Source: Ruminococcaceae bacterium UBA1772 (GTDB taxonomy: Bacteria; Bacillota; Clostridia; Oscillospirales; Acutalibacteraceae). From it: a DNA stretch of 46,056 nucleotides. The notes below the pieces were generated by a model. That model saw only the letters and a program-made list of their open reading frames with translations, had not been told where the DNA came from and searched no databases. This document shows positions 9,036-45,836 of the stretch, piece after piece; within the stretch, counting starts at the first letter, position 1; the number at the start of each line of letters is the position of its first letter. The position numbers and the translations under genes are program-made. The DNA lies in the NCBI GenBank assembly GCA_002314645.1, contig DCGS01000043.1:1-46056 (forward strand), given 5' to 3'.

Positions 9036-9278
9036 ACGCAAACGCAATGACGGAGAAAGTAGACTGTCAGTTTTTTGTAAAAAGAGAGAGCTGCCACCGG
9101 CTGAAAGCAGCTTTACAGAAAAGACATTTGAAGTTCCCTCCCGAGCGGTTTTCTTGAACTTTTAGTAGGGAAAAACGAGTGGTCCACGTTAAGGACATAA
9201 AGTGTCCGCTTTATGCGGGAATTACGGGTGGTACCGCGGAGTCTTACTTCGTCCCAGTATTTGGGGCGAATTTTTTTA
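9036..9278 (+). promoter_or_regulatory. T-box riboswitch leader (Phe) with intrinsic terminator
   Basis: AGTA-like and AGAGAG elements, and the conserved T-box AATTACGGGTGGTACCGCGGA at 9220..9240. Terminator stem TTCGTCCC/GGGGCGAA (9248..9270) plus T7. A UUC triplet at 9134..9136 is a candidate specifier. Sits immediately upstream of pheS. Confidence 0.85.
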
Positions 9279-33287: not shown

Positions 33288-36095
33288 TTATTTAGATGTG
33301 TCCTGAACAAAGAATGTAGCATATGGCTTTTCGTCCTTCACAGAGCACATAGAAACAATTGTCATTGTACCGTACTGTTCCTTGTCCTTTGTGCGACATC
33401 TGAGCTTAATTGAGCCACCCTTTTCATTGTTAGCAATTTTTTCCTTTATAGTATCTATAGAGAGGAATTTCATAGCTTTTTCCTTATCCTCTTCATGTAC
33501 TATATTGTCTATAAACTTGTCAACTGCACTTTCATAGCTCTGATTGTCAGGTATGTTTAAGAAAGGTGGCTTGGTCTGATATACGCTGTATTTATTTTCG
33601 TCTGCATCAACATAGAAAATAATGTCACAAAAATTAACTACTGTATCATTAATTGCAGATTCAAGAGCCTTATGAGCCTCTTCAAACTGCTTGCTTTCGT
33701 CTTCAGCATGTCCAATAAATACGTATCTTGTTTCTTCCTTGCCATTTCTTTCAAACTTCATCTTAGAAATAATGACTTTAAGATTCATAATCTTTCCACC
33801 AATATTTACTTTAAAGGTAGAAAGAAGCTGTTCTTTACCACTTTCAAATGCCTTTTCAACACTCTCTGTGTTACAGAAATTTATGAATCTTTCTGTATCT
33901 TCTTTAAGTAGAAGTTTTGGTGCATATATTTCAAGTACCCAAGCAATGTCACCAGAGTCTGGCTGATTACCAACCTTTGCATTGTCACAATAGAGCTTTT
34001 TAAATGTTCCTGCACTTGGGTCAAACTCATAAATAAATGTACATACATTCATAAGAGCAGATCTTACAGACTCAGAAATAAGTACCTTTCTTTCTGCCGT
34101 CTTGTCTGTCTTTTGGTTAATAGCTTCTGAATACACATATGCTCTAAAGTCGTTTGAATTAGGATCTGGATTAATTCTAACAATACTAATCTTAGACCAT
34201 TCATATGTATTTGTTTCCTTGCTAAGGATTCGCATTTCAGTAACAATTGTTGTTTCGTTCTGATAGAAGGTTGACATAACAGATATTGGCAAACATCTAT
34301 TCTTAACAACTGCCACATCATCTGGATGAACATACTTGTCTATTATTTTTGCAAATATGCTACTATAGTTGCCACCTTCAAGTTGAACATGCTTCATATT
34401 TTCTGCAATTTTACTTACATTAACATTTACAACCTTAAAAGTATCAGCATTAAAATCTACTTCAAGAAGCATTCCTGGAAGGAGACTCATAATTGATTTC
34501 AATTTCTCAGCTGCAGCAGTTCCGTCATCATCAACAACAATATTTCTGCCAGCCTGGAACTCTGCAGGCATTTCCTTACGTCTGTTACCCTCAAGAAGCA
34601 TAGTGAATCTTGAATGAGGAATTGGTTCTGAGTAAACATAACCTTGAATTATGTCACAACCAATTTCCTTAAGGAAGTTAACCTGCGCCCAATTTTCAAT
34701 ACCTTCAGCAACTGTTTTCATGTTGAGGGCTCTTGACATTGTTACTACGCTGGAAATAAGAGCTTTATCTCTTTCCAAATTGTCACTATCTTTAAAGAAC
34801 AATCTGTCAAGCTTCAATGTGTCCATTGGAAGGTTCTTAAGAATATTGAGCGATGAATATCCTGAACCAAAGTCGTCTATTGAACAAGAGAAACCAACCT
34901 TCTTAAGGCTCATTACTATTTTTCTCAATATTTCAAGGTTCTCAAATACAATGCTTTCAGTAAATTCAAGCTCTAAAAGTCCATCTGGAATATCATATTT
35001 TTCTTTAATTTTTGTATAACGCTTTACGAAGTCAAGTCTGTAGAACTGAAGTCTTGAAACGTTGATGGATACAGGAACAACCTTTATGCCAGCATCCAGC
35101 CACTCTCTCATATTCTTACATACAGTTTCAAATACATACTGGTCAAGGTTAATAATGAAACCGTTCTGTTCAAAGAGTGGAATAAATTTTGCTGGAGACA
35201 TGAATCCAGTCTCTGGGCTATCCCAACGAACAAGCGCCTCAGCACCAACTATTTCACCAGTAGAAACTTCATATTTTGGCTGGAAGTATGCTTTAAACTC
35301 TTCGTTTGCAAGCGCACTTTCCATTCTTCTTTCAAGTTCTTTTTCTGCAATTACACGTTCTCTAATTTCCTCTGTGTAATATGCAATGTGGTACTCAGAG
35401 CTTCCCTTAATAGACTTTTGAGCCATGTTTGCTCTGTCTATCATTTCACTTATTGTAAGGTCTGCATCTGCTTCACCACTGCAGAAAATACCAACATAGA
35501 TTTCTGGCTTATAGTGAGCCTTCTGAATATCTTCAAACCAACAAACGTCATCTATTATGGAGTAAATATATTCAACAAATTCATTCTTGTCTTCGTAAGG
35601 GATAATGGCGGTGTAGTTATCAGCAGAAATACGAGCAAAATATCCGCTGTTTCCTACAGTTTCCTTAATACGTGCCGAAATATACATGAGTAAATTGTCG
35701 CCTACATCATAACCGAACGTGTCATTAATATATTTAAAATTCATAATATCTGAATAAAATACAGCATACTTCTTAGACTTATCCTCAAGCATAAGGTCTG
35801 CTTCTTTTAAGAATCTTTCATAGTTGATTCCGTTGGTAAGTCGGTCGGTGTCTGCATATTTATCCATACGTGTTTCATATTTGTAAAGTGCCAAATATGT
35901 ACTAATTATTGCAAACAGCAAATACGTAAATGCAAGAACTGCAAAGTTCGTATACAAATACAAAGCGGTTGTTGCCAGTTGTAAGTTTATAAGCGCTAGG
36001 ACTACTGCAACAGACGTAATTATACTGTATATGATGACTAGCAGAGCCAGCATTTTCATTTTTACTCGTCTTATTTCTGTGGTTTTGTTACTCAA
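33288..36095 (-). CDS. Membrane-anchored degenerate-GGDEF / EAL c-di-GMP phosphodiesterase with about 440 aa of C-terminal PAS-like repeats
   Basis: Two N-terminal TM segments. GGDEF-fold with SADNY in place of GGDEF (35613..35627). EAL signature residues are intact (EALVRW, ELEFTES, DDFGSGYSSL, KLDR, AEGIE, QGY). Start reassigned to TTG 36095, 6 nt after GGAGGG, because a consensus promoter lies inside the longer track ORF. Confidence 0.85.
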   Translation of the reverse strand: MSNKTTEIRRVKMKMLALLVIIYSIITSVAVVLALINLQLATTALYLYTNFAVLAFTYLLFAIISTYLALYKYETRMDKYADTDRLTNGINYERFLKEADLMLEDKSKKYAVFYSDIMNFKYINDTFGYDVGDNLLMYISARIKETVGNSGYFARISADNYTAIIPYEDKNEFVEYIYSIIDDVCWFEDIQKAHYKPEIYVGIFCSGEADADLTISEMIDRANMAQKSIKGSSEYHIAYYTEEIRERVIAEKELERRMESALANEEFKAYFQPKYEVSTGEIVGAEALVRWDSPETGFMSPAKFIPLFEQNGFIINLDQYVFETVCKNMREWLDAGIKVVPVSINVSRLQFYRLDFVKRYTKIKEKYDIPDGLLELEFTESIVFENLEILRKIVMSLKKVGFSCSIDDFGSGYSSLNILKNLPMDTLKLDRLFFKDSDNLERDKALISSVVTMSRALNMKTVAEGIENWAQVNFLKEIGCDIIQGYVYSEPIPHSRFTMLLEGNRRKEMPAEFQAGRNIVVDDDGTAAAEKLKSIMSLLPGMLLEVDFNADTFKVVNVNVSKIAENMKHVQLEGGNYSSIFAKIIDKYVHPDDVAVVKNRCLPISVMSTFYQNETTIVTEMRILSKETNTYEWSKISIVRINPDPNSNDFRAYVYSEAINQKTDKTAERKVLISESVRSALMNVCTFIYEFDPSAGTFKKLYCDNAKVGNQPDSGDIAWVLEIYAPKLLLKEDTERFINFCNTESVEKAFESGKEQLLSTFKVNIGGKIMNLKVIISKMKFERNGKEETRYVFIGHAEDESKQFEEAHKALESAINDTVVNFCDIIFYVDADENKYSVYQTKPPFLNIPDNQSYESAVDKFIDNIVHEEDKEKAMKFLSIDTIKEKIANNEKGGSIKLRCRTKDKEQYGTMTIVSMCSVKDEKPYATFFVQDTSK

Positions 36096-36177
36096 GTTTA
36101 TCCCTCCGGAAACGGTATGCGATTTGTTCAAAAAATTCAAAAAACTACGCACTTTTTTATACAAATTTACAGAATAA

Positions 36178-36206
36178 ATTCTAACACCATAACAGCCTTT
36201 TGTCAA
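36178..36206 (-). promoter_or_regulatory. Strong sigma-A-type promoter for the minus-strand EAL gene
   Basis: Minus strand reads TTGACA, 17-nt spacer, TGtTAGAAT (extended -10). Confidence 0.7.
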
Positions 36207-36335: not shown

Positions 36336-39300
36336 ATGCATACGGATCAAAAACGAATTAATAAAAGCATAATTATATTTGGTGGCGTTGCAACTGTCTT
36401 TGTAATTGTATTCTTAACAGTTCTAACTTTTACCTATGGTAAGACTCAGCAAATTGCAGAAGACTCTCTTCTTCAGTCCACAGCAGACACTGTAGCAACT
36501 ATGGAAATGGAAGTTGAAACTGACACGAGACAAACAGAAGCAATTGCTGAAATTTTTTCGTATGAGCTCCAGAACTATACACCTGAAAAGTACGGTTCTC
36601 TTGTAGCTTATACGCTTAAAAAGTCAGTTTCACCAACCTGTACTTCTATAATATTAATTGCAAATGGTCACTACTATTACAGTAATGGCGAAAGTGGGTT
36701 AGTTACTAACGCCAAAAATACCGAACTAAAAAAGCTGTTGGATACAGAAGTAGATTTCTACAAAGGTAAAGACCGAGTAACTGGAAACACAGTTACAATG
36801 ATGATAAAAGATTTTAAGGATAGTGAAGGACGCAAATGCCAAGTTGTATGTTTATATGACTACACTGATCTTCTTGATAATTCCTATTCAAACAAGTACT
36901 ATGCAGAAGATGGCATAGACATTATTTATCAGTCAAATGGTAACATTCTTTATTCATCTAAAAATGGTGAAGATATATTCAAAGATGACACAAACATTTT
37001 TGAGGTAATAGACAAGTTAAAGGTTAGTAATAACCCGCCTAGAACAAAAACATATAAAGGCATAGTTTCAAAGGTAACAACAGTTGAAATAGATGGAATA
37101 AAGTATGCTGTATCCTATACAAATAGAGATAGTTCAAAATATAACTTTGATATTGCTCGCGTAGTACCTACTAAAGTTTTATTCTCAGCAACTGGTAATC
37201 TTTTAAGCACTATTTTTGTATCATCTGTTTTGCTTTTCTTCATTATTGCTACTCTTGCTTACAGATTCTTTAAAGCAACAAGAAACACAGCGGAGAAAAT
37301 ACAAAATATTGCCTATAAAGATCCTCTTACAGGATATCCAAACTTCGCAAAATTTAAAGAAGACGCTACTGAAATGTTAAACGGCAAGGATGCAGGCGAA
37401 TACTATATTGCATGTGCCGACATTGTTGGATTTAGATATATAAACGATGCATTCGGTTATGACATAGGAGACAAAATCCTCATTGAAATCTCAAAGAACA
37501 TTGATGATCTCCTAGAGGAAGATGAAATATTCTCACGTATTTCTGGTGACAAATTCGTTTTCATTACGAAACGTGACCTAAGTGACACAGAAAACGAAAT
37601 GTTCCTTTACAAGTTAACAGAAAGAGTAAGTACTATAGGTCCTCTTGCTAAGTCTCATATTAGACTTGAATTCCAAATGGGTATTTACAAGATTCAGCCA
37701 GAAGACATTGAAACTCTTTCAATAAACGCAATGTATGACCGTTGCCTTGTTGCACTCTATTCAATTGAACATAGCGACACAGGTATTGCCGTATATGACG
37801 CAGCAATTTACAACGAACAGGTTGAAAAGAAGAACATAGAATCTAAAATGCATAAAGCTCTCCAAAACGGCGAGTTCAGAGTATATGTTCAGCCAAAATA
37901 CAGAACTGCTAACGGAAAGCTTGCTGCTGGTGAAGCTCTCATAAGATGGGTAGACCCAGAGAAGGGCCTCATTCCACCAGTAAAATTCATTCCTCTTTTT
38001 GAACAGAACAGATTTGTTCATGATGTAGACCTTTACGTAATGGAAGTAGTTGCAAGATTCCAAAGAATGCGACTAAACGAAGGTCTTCCAGTAGTTCCAA
38101 TTTCACTTAATATTTCACCTGTTGAAATTACAATGCCAAACTTTAAGGAGTCATATATTTCTATTAAGGAGAAATATGACATTCCAGACAAGTTAATTGA
38201 ACTTGAATTCACTGAAGGTATTTTCTTCGAGGATGAAAAGTACTTCCAAAACTTAATTAGGGACTTCCAAAGCCACGGCTTTACCTGTTCAATAGATGAC
38301 TTTGGTTCAGGATACTCTTCTCTTAACATTCTTAAATCACTCCCTGTTGATACACTTAAGCTTGACAGAATATTCTTCAAAGAAAGTGACAACATTGCAC
38401 GTGACCGTTCAGTTGTTAGAAGCGTAGTTTCCATGGCTAGAGCTCTTAACATTAAGACTGTTGCTGAAGGCGTTGAAACTATGGAAGCCGTTGACTTCCT
38501 TAAACTCATTGGTTGTACTCTCATCCAAGGCTATATTTACTCAAAGCCTCTTCCTCTAACTGAGTTTGAAGAACATCTTAACAGTGAGAATATAGACACA
38601 GACGAGGATATAGATTTAGACTTCGACAAGTTTGAAGCCGTACCACTTGATGTACCTCTTACAAACTCAATAGATAACTCTCTTAGAAGTACATATACTG
38701 CCATTTGTGAAATAAACACAAACGGAAACATTTTCCACATGTACTACCCTGGAGAACCTTCAGGAAAGTTTGAAAGAATTGCTGAGCGTGGATTCTTCTC
38801 ATCATTTATTAATGATGTAATTCCAAAGTATGTTCATCCAAAGGATGTAGATAATGTACTTAACTACATGAATCCAATTAATCTTGTTGAACACTTTAAG
38901 ACAAACAAAGAATTAGATTTTGAGTACAGACACCTTCGCAAGAACGGTTCTTATTCCTGGATGAAAATCCATATTATTAAAGCAAGTGGTGGTAGATCAG
39001 ACAGCCAGGTATTCTTTGCATACTTCAATGTAATTGACAACTACAAAGAAACTGAAGAAAAACTTGAGGCCTTCCAAAATCGTTTTTCAAGTGTTTATTC
39101 TACATTTAATGGTGTCGTATTTGAAATAGACATTGAAACAAAGCTTCTTGAAAAACTTGAAAGCCACACAAGTACACTTGCAATACTCAAAGATGGTACA
39201 AGTTATGATGATGCAAGAAAATTCATCAATGAAAACATTATTCATCCAGATTACAAAGAAATCATTTCTTCTGTAGTAGATATTGAAAACATTAAAGCTT

Positions 39301-40463
39301 ACTTTAAAGAAAACAATAACACACCTCTTGTTGTTGAAGTGCTTTGTAAACCATCAAGAAAAGTTGATTATTATCACTCTTATGTTGCTACATATACATT
39401 ACAGACAAACCAGAAGCTTCTCCTTTCAATTCTCGACAATACTGAAGAGAAAACCCGAGAGGCTATGGATACATTAAAGAAGAAGGTTACAACTGCTGCA
39501 TTCTCAAATGTATATGACAGCGTAAACCATATCTTGCTGGACAAGGATGAGTTTGAACTTAGTGAATACATTACAATTTCCAAAGAGGAAAAATACACAG
39601 AAGGTAAATATTCAACATATTTGAATGCTCACCTTATTCAAACTGTTCCTGAATCTGACAGAGAGACCTTTAGTCAAATCTTCTCTCTTGAAGCTTTAAA
39701 GAATCTTTGGAATAGTGGCAATACTCATACAAGTGTTACTTATCAAGCTTCAAGCAATTCAAATCCAAATAAATATGAGTGGTTTGAATCGCTGATTATT
39801 GCAAACCGACTAACCTTTGGTAAAGAAAAGCACGTTTTCATTTTCACAAGGTCAATAGATGAACAGAAAGAGACGGAAAAAGCTCTCAACGAATATGCAC
39901 ATCGTCTTAGCTACTCACTTGCAATGTACGAATATGCATATAGCGTTGATATTGAAACTGAAAACGTCGATTTAATTGGTGGTCTTTCTCTTGACTCAGA
40001 CTTCTTCAACGAAGAAGATATGACTTATTCACAAATAACCAACACCATTAAGAATAAGTTAATCAGTGAAGATGATAGAATGGCATTCAGACGCCTCACC
40101 TATCTTGACAACCTCATTGAATATTTCTCACACAATTCTCCAACTATTGTTAAATACTTTGCTTGTGAAAGCGAGCCAAACAAGGTTATAGAAATATCTA
40201 TAATCTATGGTTCTAGAGAGCAGAAGATAACTATTTACATTAGAAAGCTTGATCGTGAAAATATTTCAAAGGAAGCTTTGTATTCAACAAGCAGTGAAGT
40301 ATCACCTGAAATAGTATCTGAAATCCCTCTTGTCACTGAGGAATCTAAAGGTGCTCCAGTAGATGGAACAGACCTTGAATACGAAAACTTAAAATCTGCC
40401 AACAGTTCAATTTCTAACCAAATTTCAAAACGTCTTGAAGATATTAGAAATGAACTAAGTTAA
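36336..40463 (+). CDS. Cache-like sensor / degenerate-GGDEF / EAL phosphodiesterase with about 630 aa of C-terminal PAS-like repeats
   Basis: TM segment, about 255 aa extracytoplasmic domain, TM segment. GGDEF-fold with SGDKF (37542..37556). EAL motifs are intact (EALIRW, ELEFTEG, DDFGSGYSSL, KLDR, AEGVE, QGY). Four PAS-like modules follow (for example YVHPKDV...EYRHLRKNGSYSWMK). RBS GGGAGG. Confidence 0.85.
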   Translation: MHTDQKRINKSIIIFGGVATVFVIVFLTVLTFTYGKTQQIAEDSLLQSTADTVATMEMEVETDTRQTEAIAEIFSYELQNYTPEKYGSLVAYTLKKSVSPTCTSIILIANGHYYYSNGESGLVTNAKNTELKKLLDTEVDFYKGKDRVTGNTVTMMIKDFKDSEGRKCQVVCLYDYTDLLDNSYSNKYYAEDGIDIIYQSNGNILYSSKNGEDIFKDDTNIFEVIDKLKVSNNPPRTKTYKGIVSKVTTVEIDGIKYAVSYTNRDSSKYNFDIARVVPTKVLFSATGNLLSTIFVSSVLLFFIIATLAYRFFKATRNTAEKIQNIAYKDPLTGYPNFAKFKEDATEMLNGKDAGEYYIACADIVGFRYINDAFGYDIGDKILIEISKNIDDLLEEDEIFSRISGDKFVFITKRDLSDTENEMFLYKLTERVSTIGPLAKSHIRLEFQMGIYKIQPEDIETLSINAMYDRCLVALYSIEHSDTGIAVYDAAIYNEQVEKKNIESKMHKALQNGEFRVYVQPKYRTANGKLAAGEALIRWVDPEKGLIPPVKFIPLFEQNRFVHDVDLYVMEVVARFQRMRLNEGLPVVPISLNISPVEITMPNFKESYISIKEKYDIPDKLIELEFTEGIFFEDEKYFQNLIRDFQSHGFTCSIDDFGSGYSSLNILKSLPVDTLKLDRIFFKESDNIARDRSVVRSVVSMARALNIKTVAEGVETMEAVDFLKLIGCTLIQGYIYSKPLPLTEFEEHLNSENIDTDEDIDLDFDKFEAVPLDVPLTNSIDNSLRSTYTAICEINTNGNIFHMYYPGEPSGKFERIAERGFFSSFINDVIPKYVHPKDVDNVLNYMNPINLVEHFKTNKELDFEYRHLRKNGSYSWMKIHIIKASGGRSDSQVFFAYFNVIDNYKETEEKLEAFQNRFSSVYSTFNGVVFEIDIETKLLEKLESHTSTLAILKDGTSYDDARKFINENIIHPDYKEIISSVVDIENIKAYFKENNNTPLVVEVLCKPSRKVDYYHSYVATYTLQTNQKLLLSILDNTEEKTREAMDTLKKKVTTAAFSNVYDSVNHILLDKDEFELSEYITISKEEKYTEGKYSTYLNAHLIQTVPESDRETFSQIFSLEALKNLWNSGNTHTSVTYQASSNSNPNKYEWFESLIIANRLTFGKEKHVFIFTRSIDEQKETEKALNEYAHRLSYSLAMYEYAYSVDIETENVDLIGGLSLDSDFFNEEDMTYSQITNTIKNKLISEDDRMAFRRLTYLDNLIEYFSHNSPTIVKYFACESEPNKVIEISIIYGSREQKITIYIRKLDRENISKEALYSTSSEVSPEIVSEIPLVTEESKGAPVDGTDLEYENLKSANSSISNQISKRLEDIRNELS

Positions 40464-40468
40464 AAACT

Positions 40469-40501
40469 AAAAGGACTTCAAGAATTCTTGAAGTCCTTTT
40501 T
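40469..40501 (+). terminator. Rho-independent terminator
   Basis: Perfect palindrome AAAGGACTTCAAGAATTCTTGAAGTCCTTT followed by a T-run. Confidence 0.85.
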
Positions 40502-40594
40502 ATATTGTAATTAATAATACTTGTATAATAATTAACAATTTGATAAAATACTGTCATGCAATTTTTTAATTTATATAAAAAAGGAGAATGAAAA

Positions 40595-41008
40595 ATGGCA
40601 GAAGAAAAAAAGGGCTTTGTAGCTGAATTCAAAGAATTTATTGCAAGAGGAAACGTAATGGATATGGCTGTCGGCGTTGTTGTAGGTGGCGCTTTCACAG
40701 CAATCGTTAACGCTCTCATTGAAAGCATTATCAACCCAATCATTACACTCATTGCAGGACAGGCTGATTTCTCATCAGTAACTGTTGGTATTTTCCCAAT
40801 TGGTACACTTATTAGTGCAATCATCAACTTCCTCCTCATTTCACTTGTTGTATTCACAATGGTTCGTACACTCAACAAGGTTAAGGACAAAACTTCAAAG
40901 AAGGAAGAAGCTGTTGAAGAAGTAGTAGAAGAAGCTCCAGCTGCTCCAACAGAGGCAGAGCTGCTTGCTGAAATTCGCGACCTTCTCATAGCAAACAATA
41001 CAAAATAA
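40595..41008 (+). CDS. mscL: Large-conductance mechanosensitive channel
   Basis: EFKEFIARGNVMDMAVGVVVGGAFTAIVNALIESIINPII is the canonical MscL N-terminus and TM1. RBS AGGAGAA. Confidence 0.95.
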   Translation: MAEEKKGFVAEFKEFIARGNVMDMAVGVVVGGAFTAIVNALIESIINPIITLIAGQADFSSVTVGIFPIGTLISAIINFLLISLVVFTMVRTLNKVKDKTSKKEEAVEEVVEEAPAAPTEAELLAEIRDLLIANNTK

Positions 41009-41023
41009 AGGAATTAACCCAAA

Positions 41024-42214
41024 ATGAAGACTCTTTACATAGATTGTTGCAATGGTGCTGCAGGTGACATGCTTTCAGCTGCTCTTTGGGAACTTATTGA
41101 CGACAAAGAAGAATTCCTAGAAGAACTCAATGCAGCTGGCATACCTGGCGTTAAGACTTACGCCATTCCATCTGTAAAGTGTGGCGTTACTGGCACACAC
41201 TTTAAGGTTGAAATATACGGCGAAGAAGAAAAGCCAGGAGAAAAAGTGCTTGCACTTGAAGAAAAGCATCATGAGTATATGCACCAGCATGGCATAGAGC
41301 ATCATCATGATCATGAGCATGAACATCATCATGACCATGAGCATGAGCATCATCATGATCATGCGCATGATCATCACCACAGTTCACTTGGTGACATTGA
41401 AAGATTAATTAGATCGCTCAATGTTTCTGAGACTGTAAAAACAGATGCAATAAACGTTTATAAGCTTATTGCTGAAGCAGAAAGCCAGGTACATGGTGAA
41501 ACTGTTGTTGACGTTCACTTCCATGAGGTTGGAATGAAGGATGCCGTAGCAGATATTGTTGCTGTTTCAATGCTTATTGAAAAGCTTGCTCCAGACTTTA
41601 TTCTTGCATCTTCAGTTCATACAGGTTCAGGAAAAATCAAGTGTGCTCACGGTATTCTTCCAGTCCCTGCCCCAGCAACTTCAATCCTTCTTCAAGGAAT
41701 TCCTGTATATGCTACAGACGTTCAAGGAGAGCTTTGTACACCAACTGGTGCTGCACTTCTTAAATACTTTGTTTCAAACTTTGGTCCAATGCCTGTTATG
41801 AACATGGAAAACATTGGATATGGTATGGGTACAAAGGACTTTGAAACCGCAAATTACCTTCGTGCAATTTGGGGTAACTCAGATAACAATATTAAAACTG
41901 GTTATGATGCACCACACCATAAGCAGACACATGAACACCATCCGGTAAATCATTCTGCTGAGCAGAAGAAGGCAGTTCTTAATAGAGTTTCACGTTCTAT
42001 TGGGCATCTTGAATCTGTAAAAAGAATGATTGAAAACGATAGTGACGCAGGAGATGTTCTCATTCAGCTCTCAGCTGTTCAGTCTTCAATTAACAGTACA
42101 GCAAGAGTAATTATTAAAGAGCACTTCAAGCACTCAATCAAAAATGCTTCAAAGACAAATGACGACAAAGCTTTTGACAGTCTTTATGGCATAATTGATA
42201 AGTTCTTAAAATAA
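41024..42214 (+). CDS. Fusion protein: LarC N-terminal (DUF111) nickel-binding domain with a His-rich insert, plus a C-terminal CsoR/RcnR-family (DUF156) domain
   Basis: N-terminal part carries MKTLYIDCCNGAAGDM, VHFHEVG, HGILPVPAPAT, GELCTPTGAALL and IGYGMGTKDF. The C-terminal 85 aa read QKKAVLNRVSRSIGHLESVKRMIENDSDAGDVLIQLSAVQSSIN...EHFKHS. Starts 15 nt after the mscL stop. Confidence 0.8.
   Translation: MKTLYIDCCNGAAGDMLSAALWELIDDKEEFLEELNAAGIPGVKTYAIPSVKCGVTGTHFKVEIYGEEEKPGEKVLALEEKHHEYMHQHGIEHHHDHEHEHHHDHEHEHHHDHAHDHHHSSLGDIERLIRSLNVSETVKTDAINVYKLIAEAESQVHGETVVDVHFHEVGMKDAVADIVAVSMLIEKLAPDFILASSVHTGSGKIKCAHGILPVPAPATSILLQGIPVYATDVQGELCTPTGAALLKYFVSNFGPMPVMNMENIGYGMGTKDFETANYLRAIWGNSDNNIKTGYDAPHHKQTHEHHPVNHSAEQKKAVLNRVSRSIGHLESVKRMIENDSDAGDVLIQLSAVQSSINSTARVIIKEHFKHSIKNASKTNDDKAFDSLYGIIDKFLK
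41300..41380 (+). repeat. In-frame 24-nt tandem repeat (about 3.4 copies) encoding (HHHDHEHE)n
   Basis: CATCATCATGATCATGAGCATGAA / CATCATCATGACCATGAGCATGAG / CATCATCATGATCATGCGCATGAT / CATCACCAC. Confidence 0.9.
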
Positions 42215-42244: not shown

Positions 42245-43228
42245 ATGCTTATTCCCGTTCTTCTCTTTATTGTAGGACTTGTACTTCTCATTAAAGGTGG
42301 AGACTGGTTCGTAGATGGAGCAACTGGTATTGCTCATAAATTTCACGTTCCAGAGCTTCTCATTGGTGCAACAGTTGTAGCTATTGGTACCACTCTTCCA
42401 GAAGTAATGGTTTCTGCAACATCAGCAGTATCTGGTCATGGAGAAATTGCATACGGTAATGCACTTGGTTCTATCATTTGTAACACAGCACTTATTGCTG
42501 CAATTACCATTACTGCAAAACCTTCTGATGTAGACAAAAAGTCTCTTGTAAAACCAGTTGCATTCTTCTTCGGTTCTGCCCTCTTTTATGCAGCAACCGC
42601 ATATGCAACAGGACATTTCTCAAGAGTTACAGGTATTGTACTTCTTGCAGTATTTGTACTTTATATTGGAATGCTTGTTAAAGAGGCAATCAGTTCACCA
42701 AAGCCAGACGTAAACCTTTCGTCTGAAAATGGTCCAGATGCAAGCGACGACCCACGAGTTATAGTAAGAGACATTATAAAGCTTATTATTGGTGCTGCCT
42801 TTATTGCCGTTGGTGCTGATTTACTTGTAGATAACGGAACACTAATTGCACAAGCACTTGGTGTACCTGAATCAGTAATTGCACTCACATTCGTAGCACT
42901 TGGCACTTCACTTCCAGAGCTTGTAACAGCAATTACATCGCTCAGAAAAGGACACGGTGCCCTTTCTCTTGGTAACGTAATTGGCGCTAACATCTTTAAC
43001 CTTGTATTGGTATCTGGTGTTTCAACAACACTTTCACCATTTGATGTTCCTGCTTCAAAAACTATTGCAGGAATGAACGCATCGCTTCTTGTAGATATTC
43101 CTGTAGTGTTCGCAGTTATGCTTATTTTAACTGTACCAGCACTTCTTAAAGGAAAGCTTACAAGAGTTCAGGGAATTATTCTTCTCTTAATATATGCGGC
43201 ATTTTGTGTGTTCCAATTTGTAAGTTAA
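42245..43228 (+). CDS. CaCA-family cation/Ca2+ (Na+/Ca2+ exchanger, YrbG-like) antiporter
   Basis: Two alpha-repeats (GTTLPEVMVSATSA and GTSLPELVTAITS) and about 10 TM segments. RBS GGAGG. Confidence 0.85.
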   Translation: MLIPVLLFIVGLVLLIKGGDWFVDGATGIAHKFHVPELLIGATVVAIGTTLPEVMVSATSAVSGHGEIAYGNALGSIICNTALIAAITITAKPSDVDKKSLVKPVAFFFGSALFYAATAYATGHFSRVTGIVLLAVFVLYIGMLVKEAISSPKPDVNLSSENGPDASDDPRVIVRDIIKLIIGAAFIAVGADLLVDNGTLIAQALGVPESVIALTFVALGTSLPELVTAITSLRKGHGALSLGNVIGANIFNLVLVSGVSTTLSPFDVPASKTIAGMNASLLVDIPVVFAVMLILTVPALLKGKLTRVQGIILLLIYAAFCVFQFVS

Positions 43229-43232
43229 AAGT

Positions 43233-43268
43233 AAAAGAGCTAAGTCCAATGGACTTAGCTCTTTTTTT
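43233..43268. terminator. Bidirectional terminator between the antiporter and the convergent TSCPD gene
   Basis: AAAAGAGCTAAGTCC-AAT-GGACTTAGCTCTTTT followed by a T-run. Confidence 0.85.
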
Positions 43269-44198: not shown

Positions 44199-44230
44199 AG
44201 TTAGAAATAAAGTTTTAAAAGGTGAATTAT

Positions 44231-44734
44231 ATGGCTAAGAAAAATATGAGTGATAGAGCAGCCGAGCTTGCTCTCTCTGCAATTCCAGATGATGAACTTC
44301 TAAAACTGGATAACCAGTTATGCTTTTCCCTTTATGTGTGTTCTAAAGAGGTAATAAGAAGATATAAACCATTACTAGATCCATATGGCTTAACATACAC
44401 AGGTTACATTACCCTTATGGCTCTTTGGGAAAAGGATAATATTAATGTAAAAGAACTTGGAGAAAGACTCTTCCTTGACTCTGGTACACTCACCCCTCTT
44501 CTTAAAAAGCTTGAGGCACTTGAGTATGTTACAAGAGTTAGAGACCCTAAAGATGAAAGAAACATGAAAATATGTTTAACAGAAAAGGGTCGCAACTTAA
44601 AGAAGGAAGCAGTTTGTGTTCCAAAGGAACTCCTCTCCTCTGTTTCTTTTGGTAATGTTAAAGCATATCTTCTCATGCAAACTCTACATCAACTCATGGA
44701 TGTTCTTACAGAAAATGGAGATGAAGAAAAATGA
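44231..44734 (+). CDS. ohrR: MarR-family, OhrR-like organic hydroperoxide-sensing repressor
   Basis: LDNQLCFSLY (sensing Cys context), TYTGYITLMALWE, LDSGTLTPLLKKLE...V.R.RDPKDER. ATG 44231 follows AAGGTGA. Confidence 0.8.
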   Translation: MAKKNMSDRAAELALSAIPDDELLKLDNQLCFSLYVCSKEVIRRYKPLLDPYGLTYTGYITLMALWEKDNINVKELGERLFLDSGTLTPLLKKLEALEYVTRVRDPKDERNMKICLTEKGRNLKKEAVCVPKELLSSVSFGNVKAYLLMQTLHQLMDVLTENGDEEK

Positions 44735-45549
44735 TCCAAGATATTGCACCATATGAGTATGACAACCAGTATAGAAATGAAAAACCAGACGAAAACTCTG
44801 CAATAGTTCTTATTGAAAAAGGAAAGCTCCTTGTGAAGGTATGTGAAAATGAATTTTCGTTTCCTATATATAAAGAAGTAAAAGAAGAATTAAAGCTTAC
44901 ATACCTTTTTTCAATTAGTAATCGGAAATACTTTCTTTCAGAAACACCATTTACCCTTGAAGGCTATTCTTTACTAGGTGCATTTGAATTAAGAACAGCA
45001 GGGCCTAAACATTTAAAATTTGCAGCCGTTACTGCAATGCAGCTATCAGGCTGGTATAAGCAGCACAAATTGTGCGGATGTTGTGGCGAACCAATGCAGC
45101 ATTCCGAAAAGGAGCGCATGTTAATGTGCCCTTCTTGTAAGGTCCCTGTGTACCCAGTAATTAGTCCTGCGGTAATAGTGGCCATTACAGACGGTGACCG
45201 CATTGTTCTTTCAAGGTACGCACAGGGACCTGCAAAGAGCCACTATGCGCTCATTGCAGGATTTAACGAAATTGGTGAGCCTATAGAGGACACAGTACGC
45301 CGTGAAGTAATGGAAGAGGTTGGCCTTAAAGTTAAAAACATTAAGTTTTATAAAAGCCAACCATGGTCCTTTACAGGCACTCTCCTTCTAGGATTTGTCT
45401 GTGACCTCGACGGCTCAGATGAAATTAAAATAGATAAAGAAGAACTTGCTGAGGCACTTTTTGTAAATAGGAATGATATTCCTGACCGCATTGACGACAT
45501 CAGCCTTACATGGGAAATGATAAACAAATTCAAAAGTGGTGAACTTTAA
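44731..45549 (+). CDS. nudC: NAD+ diphosphatase / NAD-cap decapping Nudix hydrolase NudC
   Basis: Zinc ribbon CGCCGEPMQHSEKERMLMCPSC and Nudix box GFNEIGEPIEDTVRREVMEEVGL. ATGA overlap with ohrR. Confidence 0.85.
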   Translation: MIQDIAPYEYDNQYRNEKPDENSAIVLIEKGKLLVKVCENEFSFPIYKEVKEELKLTYLFSISNRKYFLSETPFTLEGYSLLGAFELRTAGPKHLKFAAVTAMQLSGWYKQHKLCGCCGEPMQHSEKERMLMCPSCKVPVYPVISPAVIVAITDGDRIVLSRYAQGPAKSHYALIAGFNEIGEPIEDTVRREVMEEVGLKVKNIKFYKSQPWSFTGTLLLGFVCDLDGSDEIKIDKEELAEALFVNRNDIPDRIDDISLTWEMINKFKSGEL

Positions 45550-45836
45550 TGACTGAGTTTGAAAAAAGTGTGTACGAGGTTGTAAAAACAATTCCATATG
45601 GAGAAGTTAGAACCTACGCAGACATAGGCACAGCACTTGGAAATCCAAAGCTTGCAAGGGCCATTGGAAATGCGCTACATAAAAATCCAGATCCAGATGG
45701 CACACCATGCTTTAGAGTGGTTCACTCAGATGGAAGCCTCTGCCCAGCTTTTGCCTTTGGTGGAATAGATGCACAAAAAGCACTTCTTGAAGCAGAAGGA
45801 GTTACAATAAAAGATAACAAGGTGGTTCTAGGATGA
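45549..45836 (+). CDS. MGMT/ATL-family (COG3695-like) single-domain alkylated-DNA binding protein, PCFRV variant
   Basis: 95 aa. IPYGEVRTYADIGTALGNPKLARAIGNAL...TPCFRVVHSDGSL. TAATG overlap with nudC. Confidence 0.75.
   Translation: MTEFEKSVYEVVKTIPYGEVRTYADIGTALGNPKLARAIGNALHKNPDPDGTPCFRVVHSDGSLCPAFAFGGIDAQKALLEAEGVTIKDNKVVLG

Follow-up and report, generated by a model that had tools for sequence, protein, structure and literature searches.

A single open reading frame (ORF) in contig DCGS01000043.1 of Ruminococcaceae bacterium UBA1772 encodes a protein in which the LarC1 domain of the nickel-insertion protein LarC is joined, by way of a linker, to a domain of the CsoR/RcnR family of metal-responsive repressors, in the place where LarC would continue into its own LarC2 domain. 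The stretch of DNA that was analysed, which we call the window, is 46,056 nucleotides long, and the ORF occupies positions 41024–42214 of its forward strand, running from an ATG to a TAA codon and specifying 396 amino acids. The fusion is genuine, and one group of uncultured bacteria from the gut and rumen has conserved it; its novelty is one of domain architecture, assembled from two families that were already known, and the protein itself is uncharacterised. We propose, with a rough probability of 0.5, that it is a DNA-binding repressor in which the sensing of the effector has moved to the fused LarC1 module.

Domain architecture of the fusion protein

The N-terminal part of the protein (residues 4–291; positions 41033–41896, forward strand) matches the Pfam family PF01969 (Ni_insertion) with an E-value of 2.6e-81 over positions 1–235 of the 375-position profile, which corresponds to LarC1 only. 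NCBIfam places the 396-residue protein in TIGR00299 (nickel_LarC1, E = 2.6e-60), and the best match to this domain in a sequence search of the PDB is a full-length LarC (12BI, E = 1e-41). The original prediction, which was made from the sequence without database searches, had described residues 1 to about 290 as the LarC N-terminal domain; all three resources agree with it, and the motifs it quoted are all present. The C-terminal residues 314–392 (positions 41963–42199, forward strand) match PF02583 (Trns_repr_metal) over profile positions 1–77 of 78 with 69.7 bits (E = 2.9e-19), the cut-off for that family being 22.8 bits, so that the tail belongs to this family and is not a normal LarC C-terminal domain. 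NCBIfam matches of residues 309–396 to RicR, FrmR and RcnR are all sub-threshold, and the PDB sequence search with this domain is headed by the nickel sensor InrS (5FMN, E = 4e-13), followed by CsoR, CstR and FrmR. The Mycobacterium tuberculosis CsoR sequence that had been quoted in assigning the last ~85 residues to the three-helix CsoR/RcnR/FrmR fold does align to the tail as claimed.

A single-chain AlphaFold2 (AF2) model, computed from an input alignment of 28 family members and having a mean predicted local distance difference test (pLDDT) score of 77.5, contains a confident LarC1 fold and three C-terminal helices at residues 312–337, 342–378 and 381–395, with disorder in a His-rich segment (residues 78–117) and in the linker (residues 293–303). 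A Foldseek search with the C-terminal domain returns InrS (5FMN, chain A) first, with a template-modelling (TM) score of 0.83 and a root-mean-square deviation of 2.0 Å, and the top 19 matches are all CsoR-family structures. The pattern of conservation within the family is likewise that of an InrS-like three-helix domain.

Alignment with canonical LarC proteins places the junction exactly at the natural linker between LarC1 and LarC2, the fusion protein reading '...ANYLRAIWGNS' where its nearest canonical LarCs read '...ANCLRAFLGESEGQ..KLECNLDDMTGE'. The interdomain linker of the fusion (residues 292–311; positions 41897–41956, forward strand) is partly disordered and contains a nearly invariant H306-P-V motif, and H310 near its end occupies the position of InrS His21. 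Searches by tblastn with four LarC2 domains find no LarC2, the cytidine triphosphate (CTP)- and Mn-binding hexameric core of LarC, in the window or in any fusion locus. A cryptic LarC2 in the C-terminus was considered, and is ruled out by this null result and by the Pfam alignment stopping at profile position 235 of 375. Pfam, NCBIfam, the PDB search, the AF2 model, Foldseek and the junction alignment thus concur that LarC2 has been replaced by a CsoR-type domain, as was first proposed.

The His-rich insert lies inside LarC1 (residues 78–117; positions 41255–41374, forward strand) and has pLDDT values below 50. Tandem Repeats Finder detects here a 24-nucleotide repeat at positions 41288–41376, present in 3.7 copies (CATGAGCATGAGCATCATCATGAT) and encoding a His-rich loop of the HEHEHHHD type, so that about 22 His residues fall within the disordered 40. 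Two listed antisense ORFs at positions 41117–41387 are probably by-products of this repeated run of His codons.

Distribution of the fusion family

The family to which the window's fusion belongs, here class A, comprises about 75 clusters at 90% identity (P0001–P0075), found in a search space of 5.8 billion proteins. All have both Pfam domains in one chain, at 52–100% identity and with lengths of 351–430 amino acids. The assemblies are from NCBI, ENA and Logan, and canonical LarCs, 417–440 amino acids long, rank below the fusions in the same search. A scan of one genome per species with a profile of the C-terminal domain found the fusion in 17 GTDB species-representative genomes (L010, L013–L025, L028, L029 and L036). 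The species are labelled Oscillospiraceae, Acutalibacteraceae, Ruminococcaceae UBA1785, Candidatus Limimonas, RUG351 and RUG420, and the metagenome-assembled genomes (MAGs) were obtained from rumen, horse, goat, deer and human gut. Both domains stand in one ORF across independent assemblies, and the 75 clusters, the many assemblies and the 17 species representatives together rule out a frameshift or an assembly error that had joined two separate genes. Gene callers frequently set the start of an ORF directly 3′ of the His-codon repeat, and the short gene calls in cluster 10 are either of this kind or fragments.

Public annotations of these proteins are generic ('DUF111 family protein' or 'LarC family nickel insertion protein'). 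We found no mention in the literature searched of a LarC paired with CsoR, InrS or RcnR, or of the fused architecture, and within that literature the earlier statement that no characterised protein shares this architecture is borne out.

The CsoR/RcnR-family module

The closest structural relative of the C-terminal domain is InrS of Synechocystis, and alignment with 5FMN extends into the His segment that precedes helix 1. The four W-X-Y-Z metal ligands of InrS, His21, Cys53, His78 and Cys82, correspond to H310, A342, H367 and S371 of the fusion, so that His78 is kept and both cysteines are exchanged, for Ala and Ser. The same is seen throughout class A (n = 75), in which 70 members have Ala and 5 have Thr at position X, 63 have Ala and 12 have Ser at Z, and 71 have His at Y, with W variable; the domain is entirely free of Cys in 72 of the 75. 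In InrS, Ni(II) binding is substantially impaired by any one of the substitutions C53A, H78L and C82A (PMC4235346), and because both of the cysteines needed there for tight binding have been replaced, the intrinsic metal site appears to be gone in class A. The resulting fingerprint, x-A-H-A/S, is unlike the known fingerprints of the family (x-C-H-C, H-C-H-H, H-C-H-C and x-C-x-C). The fusion also departs from InrS in having no nrsD-like exporter gene adjacent, and in being a 396-residue protein of which the repressor is the C-terminal domain, where InrS is a stand-alone repressor of ~100 residues; no other CsoR-family comparator used here (CsoR, RcnR, FrmR and CstR) has a large fused N-terminal domain.

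Among the stand-alone relatives that lie outside the fusion clade (Butyrivibrio, Eubacterium, Oscillibacter, Synergistaceae, Clostridium and others), the H-C-H-C type with a His-rich N-terminal tail is almost universal, so that the thiolates were lost in the very clade that gained LarC1. These relatives, uncharacterised and mostly encoded by separate genes for ~90–170 amino acids in Clostridia and Synergistaceae, are 45–57% identical to the fused domain and share with it an HS.E..K..NR lead-in, but they keep both cysteines.

While the metal ligands have changed, the residues expected to contact DNA have not. K316, N320, R321, R324, G327, H328, S331, K333, R334, M335, Q348, R361 and K365 are invariant in 75 of 75 members, and the stand-alone H-C-H-C repressors have nearly the same sequence in helix 1 and at the start of helix 2. 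R321 aligns with Arg15 of M. tuberculosis CsoR, mutation of which abolishes DNA binding (PMC10601412); the equivalent of Arg52 is Ser. The three-helix fold and the helix-1 NR..R..GH motif are those of CsoR, RcnR, FrmR and CstR (PF02583/DUF156), and the C-terminal ...DKF.K tail resembles that of RcnR and FrmR. We suggest that the invariant basic residues form a putative DNA face that has been kept.

An exhaustive profile search of 1.84 billion representatives recovered about 5,000 family members, just four of which fall in the fusion's own sub-clade. The same repressor clade also occurs with other N-terminal partners, namely a HAD hydrolase, an S-adenosylmethionine-dependent methyltransferase (three representatives), a PAS domain with a sigma-54 AAA+ fragment and a ZnuA fragment, as well as in the form of a tandem CsoR–CsoR duplicate (L032:9230-10264; P0195, P0264, P0163, P0189, P0188 and P0152). 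Chimeric gene calls or assemblies may account for some of these; evidently the CsoR-type domain tolerates N-terminal partners.

The LarC1 module

A 2026 study of M. thermoacetica LarC by cryo-electron microscopy and mutagenesis describes LarC1 as a new fold with a surface His cluster, in which H108A, H118A and H160A each leave less than 10% of activity (PMC13510736). An adjacent acidic pocket formed by D15, E104, E119, D124, D128 and E187 is the proposed site for the substrate activated by cytidine monophosphate (CMP), and E104 is suggested to act as the nucleophile; a neighbouring LarC1 domain contributes the rest of the His-rich nickel surface, and every alteration of the LarC1–LarC2 linker cuts activity dramatically (PMC13510736).

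The 291-residue N-terminal part of the fusion, which stops where the natural interdomain linker begins, is on average ~61% identical to its nearest canonical LarCs. It has the His cluster, the acidic pocket and the His-rich loop in common with LarC, the CTP-dependent nickel-pincer cyclometallase (LarC1/LarC2 of L. plantarum; M. thermoacetica, PDB 12BI). The differences are that the CTP-binding, hexamer-forming LarC2 has been swapped for the repressor domain and that class A genes lie outside lar clusters. In the alignment with 12BI, residues D15, E153, H157, H165 and H167 of the fusion correspond to D15, E104, H108, H116 and H118 of M. thermoacetica LarC, and E168, D173, D177, H209 and E236 to E119, D124, D128, H160 and E187. 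All ten functional residues are present in the fusion and invariant in the 45 nearest canonical LarCs; nine of them are kept in at least 73 of the 75 class A members, and D15 in 67. D15N is found in one class A subclade, the equivalent of E104 is lost in P0010 and P0075, and two long-branch relatives of the family, P0166 and P0170, have kept both domains and lost nearly all of the LarC1 functional residues.

The His-rich insert varies in length from 10 to 80 residues across the family and is poorer in His than that of the sister LarCs (median 11 against 28), with a minimum in class A of 0. Together with the D15N and E104 changes, the shrunken insert may be read as a sign that class A LarC1 is mildly relaxed. 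The insert also bears on the possibility that the protein is a nickel buffer, store or metallochaperone of the Hpn, HypB or SlyD type, in which the loop and the LarC1 histidines would hold nickel and the helical bundle would serve to multimerise. The ~22 His of the window's protein, encoded by a tandem repeat in a disordered loop, the further His in the linker and the failure of the operator search described below all fit such a role. The family as a whole does not follow this pattern, since the His tract is shorter and His-poorer than in the nearest true LarCs and lacks His altogether in some members; in addition, the conserved acidic pocket and DNA-face residues would be unneeded for storage, and derivatives without LarC1 persist. 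We consider a storage role very improbable.

Deletion derivatives, a possible precursor and a second fusion

Several orthologues have lost most of LarC1 (L011:9848-10279, L012:9848-10279, L026:9752-10288 and P0154). These proteins of 143–178 amino acids start with MKTLYIDCSN..., have only the first ~10–50 residues of LarC1, and then continue into the linker and a CsoR domain without Cys. They belong to close relatives and sit at the orthologous position after mscL, near genes for a proton-pumping pyrophosphatase (H+-PPase) 85–86% identical to that of the window. L011 and L012 differ at 21% of nucleotides and 12% of residues, and in the CsoR part the nonsynonymous divergence (dN) is 0.037 with synonymous divergence (dS) saturated. 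The low dN in proteins that have no LarC1 implies that the repressor module is maintained by selection and has a function of its own, and such purifying selection is hard to reconcile with a role purely as a scaffold.

A locus in a rumen Oscillospiraceae MAG (L059:160-3517) shows an arrangement from which the fusion could have been derived. It contains, in order, a full-length larC, a Trns_repr_metal gene, a larE-like (PP-loop) gene and a larB-like (AIRC) gene; the Trns_repr_metal gene lies 3 nucleotides 3′ of larC and encodes a 100-residue protein of the H-C-H-C type, and the LarC falls in the canonical clade nearest the class A fusions. This organization suggests that a CsoR-family repressor gives nickel-responsive control of the biosynthesis of the pincer cofactor, a pyridinium-bisthiocarboxylate nucleotide. 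We propose that the class A fusion arose in a lar operon of this kind, with larC beside an inrS-like gene, by a deletion extending from the LarC1–LarC2 linker into the His-rich tail of the repressor.

LarC1 and a CsoR-type domain have also been joined in a second family, class B (P0288 and P0301–P0312, from Eubacterium sp. MAGs), again with two domains and without LarC2. The LarC1 domains of the two classes are 37% identical to each other, and 61% (class A) and 54% (class B) identical to their respective nearest canonical LarCs; bootstrap analysis recovers class A and class B as a monophyletic group in 0 of 100 trees and class B alone in 100 of 100. Judging from these trees, class B arose independently of class A. 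It differs from class A in keeping H-C-H-C intact in 12 of 13 members and in its position in lar operons, the gene being located between larB and larE in L092:9227-12173 and after larB in L094:9233-11242. The class B linkers are very His-rich and 46–96 residues long, the LarC1 sites are mostly kept, and there is no LarC2 within 10 kb of class B genes. Two independent origins imply that the combination of LarC1 with CsoR has been selected.

LarC1 is also found by itself. Proteins of 244–300 amino acids that consist of LarC1 only are common, and in L095:7144-8867 a 288-residue example directly follows a larB-like gene and is in turn followed by valS, with no LarC2 ORF. Such genes hint that LarC1 can function independently of LarC2, and they may serve a dinucleotide pathway.

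These arrangements invite the alternative that the fusions are enzymes first. The protein would then be a nickel insertase independent of LarC2, acting for example on P2TAD, for which no CMP activation would be needed; the helical bundle would be an oligomerisation core or, in class B, a nickel-capture module, and would not bind DNA. In class B the fusion stands where larC would be expected, flanked by larB and larE, and LarC2 is absent from the 10 kb around it; a LarC1-only gene follows larB in L095, and the catalytic residues of LarC1 are conserved. LarC itself can turn P2TAD, a dinucleotide bearing adenosine monophosphate, into NPMN (PMC13510736), the dinucleotide cofactor NPAD is reported in a work cited in PMC13524815, and a tether that oligomerises would be useful to a domain whose nickel surface forms between neighbours. 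The deletion derivatives speak against it, since they keep the CsoR domain under strong purifying selection, as do the invariant basic residues on the surface of helix 1, among them the Arg15 equivalent. Class A is near no lar gene, in the window or in the ~10 kb around the class A loci, some members have lost the equivalent of D15 or E104, and P0166 and P0170 keep both domains without nearly all of the LarC1 functional residues. In LarC, moreover, changes to the LarC1–LarC2 linker, at which the fusion has been made, dramatically reduce activity. On balance we think this explanation unlikely.

Both activities might also reside in one protein. In BirA, NadR, PutA and NikR a module that handles a cofactor or a metal is coupled to a module that binds DNA, and the status of the ligand controls transcription. 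The folds are unrelated to those considered here and the analogy is functional only. By comparison with BirA, NadR and PutA, the fusion could act as a trigger enzyme: LarC1 would still carry out nickel insertion on a pincer precursor and the CsoR domain would bind DNA, so that occupancy or turnover of the enzyme site would signal the supply of nickel or precursor to transcription. The conservation of residues in both modules speaks for this, as do the two independent origins and the placement of class B, whose ligand systems are both intact, within larB-X-larE operons. Class A fits less well, since its genes have no lar neighbours, its CsoR domain has given up the metal site and some orthologues dispense with LarC1, and we are inclined to doubt that the trigger-enzyme interpretation applies.

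Genomic setting

The fusion gene lies in a compact unit on the forward strand. The gene mscL, for a large-conductance mechanosensitive channel (positions 40595–41008; PF01741, E = 4.5e-35), ends 15 nucleotides 5′ of the fusion gene, and Na_Ca_ex, for a cation antiporter of the CaCA family (positions 42245–43228; PF01699, E = 4.8e-62), starts 30 nucleotides 3′ of it. No terminator-like site is present on the forward strand between the mscL, fusion and Na_Ca_ex genes. The mscL and fusion genes are probably co-transcribed, and Na_Ca_ex probably completes the unit in this genome as its third gene. The 5′ boundary is a terminator-like hairpin with a 14-bp stem and a T-run (inverted repeat I1; positions 40469–40500, forward strand) that ends the upstream GGDEF/EAL gene, and the 3′ boundary is marked by a perfect 15-bp bidirectional terminator hairpin at positions 43233–43265. 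A putative sigma-70 promoter of the mscL–fusion operon, found by eye, lies at positions 40521–40549 (forward strand) and consists of TTGTAT, a 17-nucleotide spacer and TG-n-TAAAAT. It was missed by a scanner for consensus promoters, the −35 hexamer agreeing at only 3 of 6 positions; the arrangement TTGTA(T/C)...TGnTAAAAT recurs 5′ of mscL in many homologous loci.

We surveyed ~10 kb around the gene in 22 non-redundant class A loci. The mscL gene is immediately 5′ of the fusion in 19 of them, 18 have the H+-PPase gene on the upstream side and 13 have a MarR gene on the downstream side. Nine of the 22 have Na_Ca_ex within 10 kb, and only in the window and its closest relative (L001/L010) does it directly neighbour the fusion gene on the same strand. 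Because the whole region is syntenic (mraZ on the opposite strand, H+-PPase, GGDEF/EAL genes, mscL, the fusion gene and MarR), the adjacency of mscL is explained by vertical inheritance as well as by function, and may reflect descent rather than function. Homologues of larB, larE and LarC2 are absent from the ~10 kb around these 22 loci.

The remaining part of the 46-kb window is housekeeping in character, including the dcw cluster and pheST with a T-box leader (Rfam RF00230, 107.7 bits) at positions 9038–9259, upstream of pheS/pheT. Between the H+-PPase gene and mscL there are two divergent genes for GGDEF/EAL proteins of 971 and 1375 amino acids (positions 33288–36206, reverse strand, and 36336–40463, forward strand), a pair that is found in roughly half of the related loci; the 1375-residue protein has a PAS_3 match below the Pfam cut-off. 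At positions 44222–45836 is a tight run of genes with overlapping stop and start codons, for MarR, a NudC-like NUDIX protein with a Zn-ribbon and a 95-residue PF01035 protein that comprises the MGMT DNA-binding domain only, the MarR gene being divergent to a glutathione-peroxidase gene. Among the closest canonical LarCs, we note that the gene for P0090 (L090:4209-6058) has a start that is overlapped by the stop codon of a gene for the S-component of an energy-coupling factor (ECF) transporter, and that neither larB nor larE is near larC in this neighbourhood.

Proposed function

Two readings accompanied the original prediction, a metal-responsive DNA-binding regulator with a LarC1-like sensor, and a nickel-handling or storage protein using the CsoR bundle for oligomerisation in place of LarC2. 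The evidence favours the first over the second. It does so because the repressor domain is kept under selection in orthologues from which LarC1 has been deleted, because the basic residues of helices 1 and 2 are invariant, and because it is the sister LarCs that have the longer His-rich tract; the same three observations, of deletion derivatives, an invariant basic face and a shrinking His tract, disfavour the enzyme-first and storage alternatives.

The repressor that we propose would operate as follows. The C-terminal module most likely forms the usual CsoR-type dimer or tetramer, and would be a DNA-bound repressor whose own metal site has been lost. LarC1 would have taken over the binding of the effector, which could be Ni(II), possibly together with the pincer nucleotide. 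Loading would change the association of the four LarC1 domains tethered around the repressor core and in this way would change DNA binding; that loading should rearrange the LarC1 domains is expected because the nickel surface of LarC forms between neighbouring LarC1 domains. The likeliest target is the protein's own mscL–fusion(–Na_Ca_ex) operon, as a putative case of autoregulation. In all of this we infer the binding of DNA, the binding of nickel or of a nucleotide, the direction of the allostery and the targets.

A number of observations weigh against this proposal. Neither the window's promoter nor the rest of the window yielded an operator of the CsoR or RcnR type; a search of the window for GGGG..CCCC gave 0 matches, no G/C-tract inverted repeat of the kind bound by other members of the CsoR family was seen, and the window's mscL promoter contains no convincing palindrome. 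Across the family the fusion loci share a common sigma-70-like promoter, but the inverted repeats that follow it differ by subclade. G/C-rich inverted repeats with compensatory changes are present ~30–60 nucleotides 5′ of mscL, just after the −10 box, in L013, L015, L017, L018, L022, L025, L029 and L011, often with a T-run after them, and are not present in the window or in L010. They might represent terminators in the leader, hairpins that stabilise the 5′ end, or operators; their variation from subclade to subclade and their likeness to terminators or 5′ hairpins count against the repressor proposal. The nickel context is missing as well, with no lar gene, nickel transporter or nickel enzyme in the 46-kb window or in the ~10 kb around class A genes. 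The conserved nucleophile and acidic pocket exceed what a plain nickel sensor would seem to need and would fit an enzyme equally well. Plausibly, LarC1 can work without LarC2, as the context of L095 and the class B genes in the larC slot indicate, and the fully conserved catalytic pocket together with that placement of class B keeps the enzymatic options alive. Finally, H306 of the HPV motif and H367, plus either H370 or H374, are kept in 55 of the 75 members, and a residual, weaker metal site made up of His only is possible in the CsoR domain itself.

Regulatory signals were also sought more widely. A search for palindromes enriched upstream of 60 stand-alone relatives gave candidates that were rejected, being only a palindrome in coding sequence and an AT-rich repeat specific to Butyrivibrio. 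G/C palindromes 5′ of the lar operons of L059 and L094 are suggestive but uncontrolled, and no riboswitch or other Rfam element is present in the mscL leader.

The LarC1–CsoR proteins of both classes could be ligand-gated repressors or trigger enzymes that read the nickel-pincer pathway, with the LarC1 pocket binding or metallating a nucleotide together with Ni(II), an idea that we put forward only tentatively and hold to be rather unlikely.

Implications for metal sensing and nickel insertion

The CsoR/RcnR sensors are regarded as minimal single-domain repressors with one intersubunit sensing site, and LarC1 is a newly visualised fold known solely as half of an enzyme. If our proposal for class A is correct, a repressor without ligands of its own, joined to a LarC1 that has all of its own, would represent a new way to build a sensor for a metal or a cofactor, and the fusion would provide an experimentally tractable handle on what LarC1 alone binds, which is relevant to the mechanism of LarC. 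Should the nickel-pincer pathway be what is read, these proteins would be the first known case of transcription factors that respond to an organometallic nickel cofactor or to the precursor of one, and would have been invented twice independently, once still within larB-X-larE operons. The second origin in lar operons and the LarC1-only genes bear on whether nickel can be inserted without the CTP-dependent LarC2 step. For the organisms themselves, the fusion, if it acts as proposed, would point to nickel-linked or nickel-pincer-linked regulation in abundant uncultured Clostridia of the gut and rumen.

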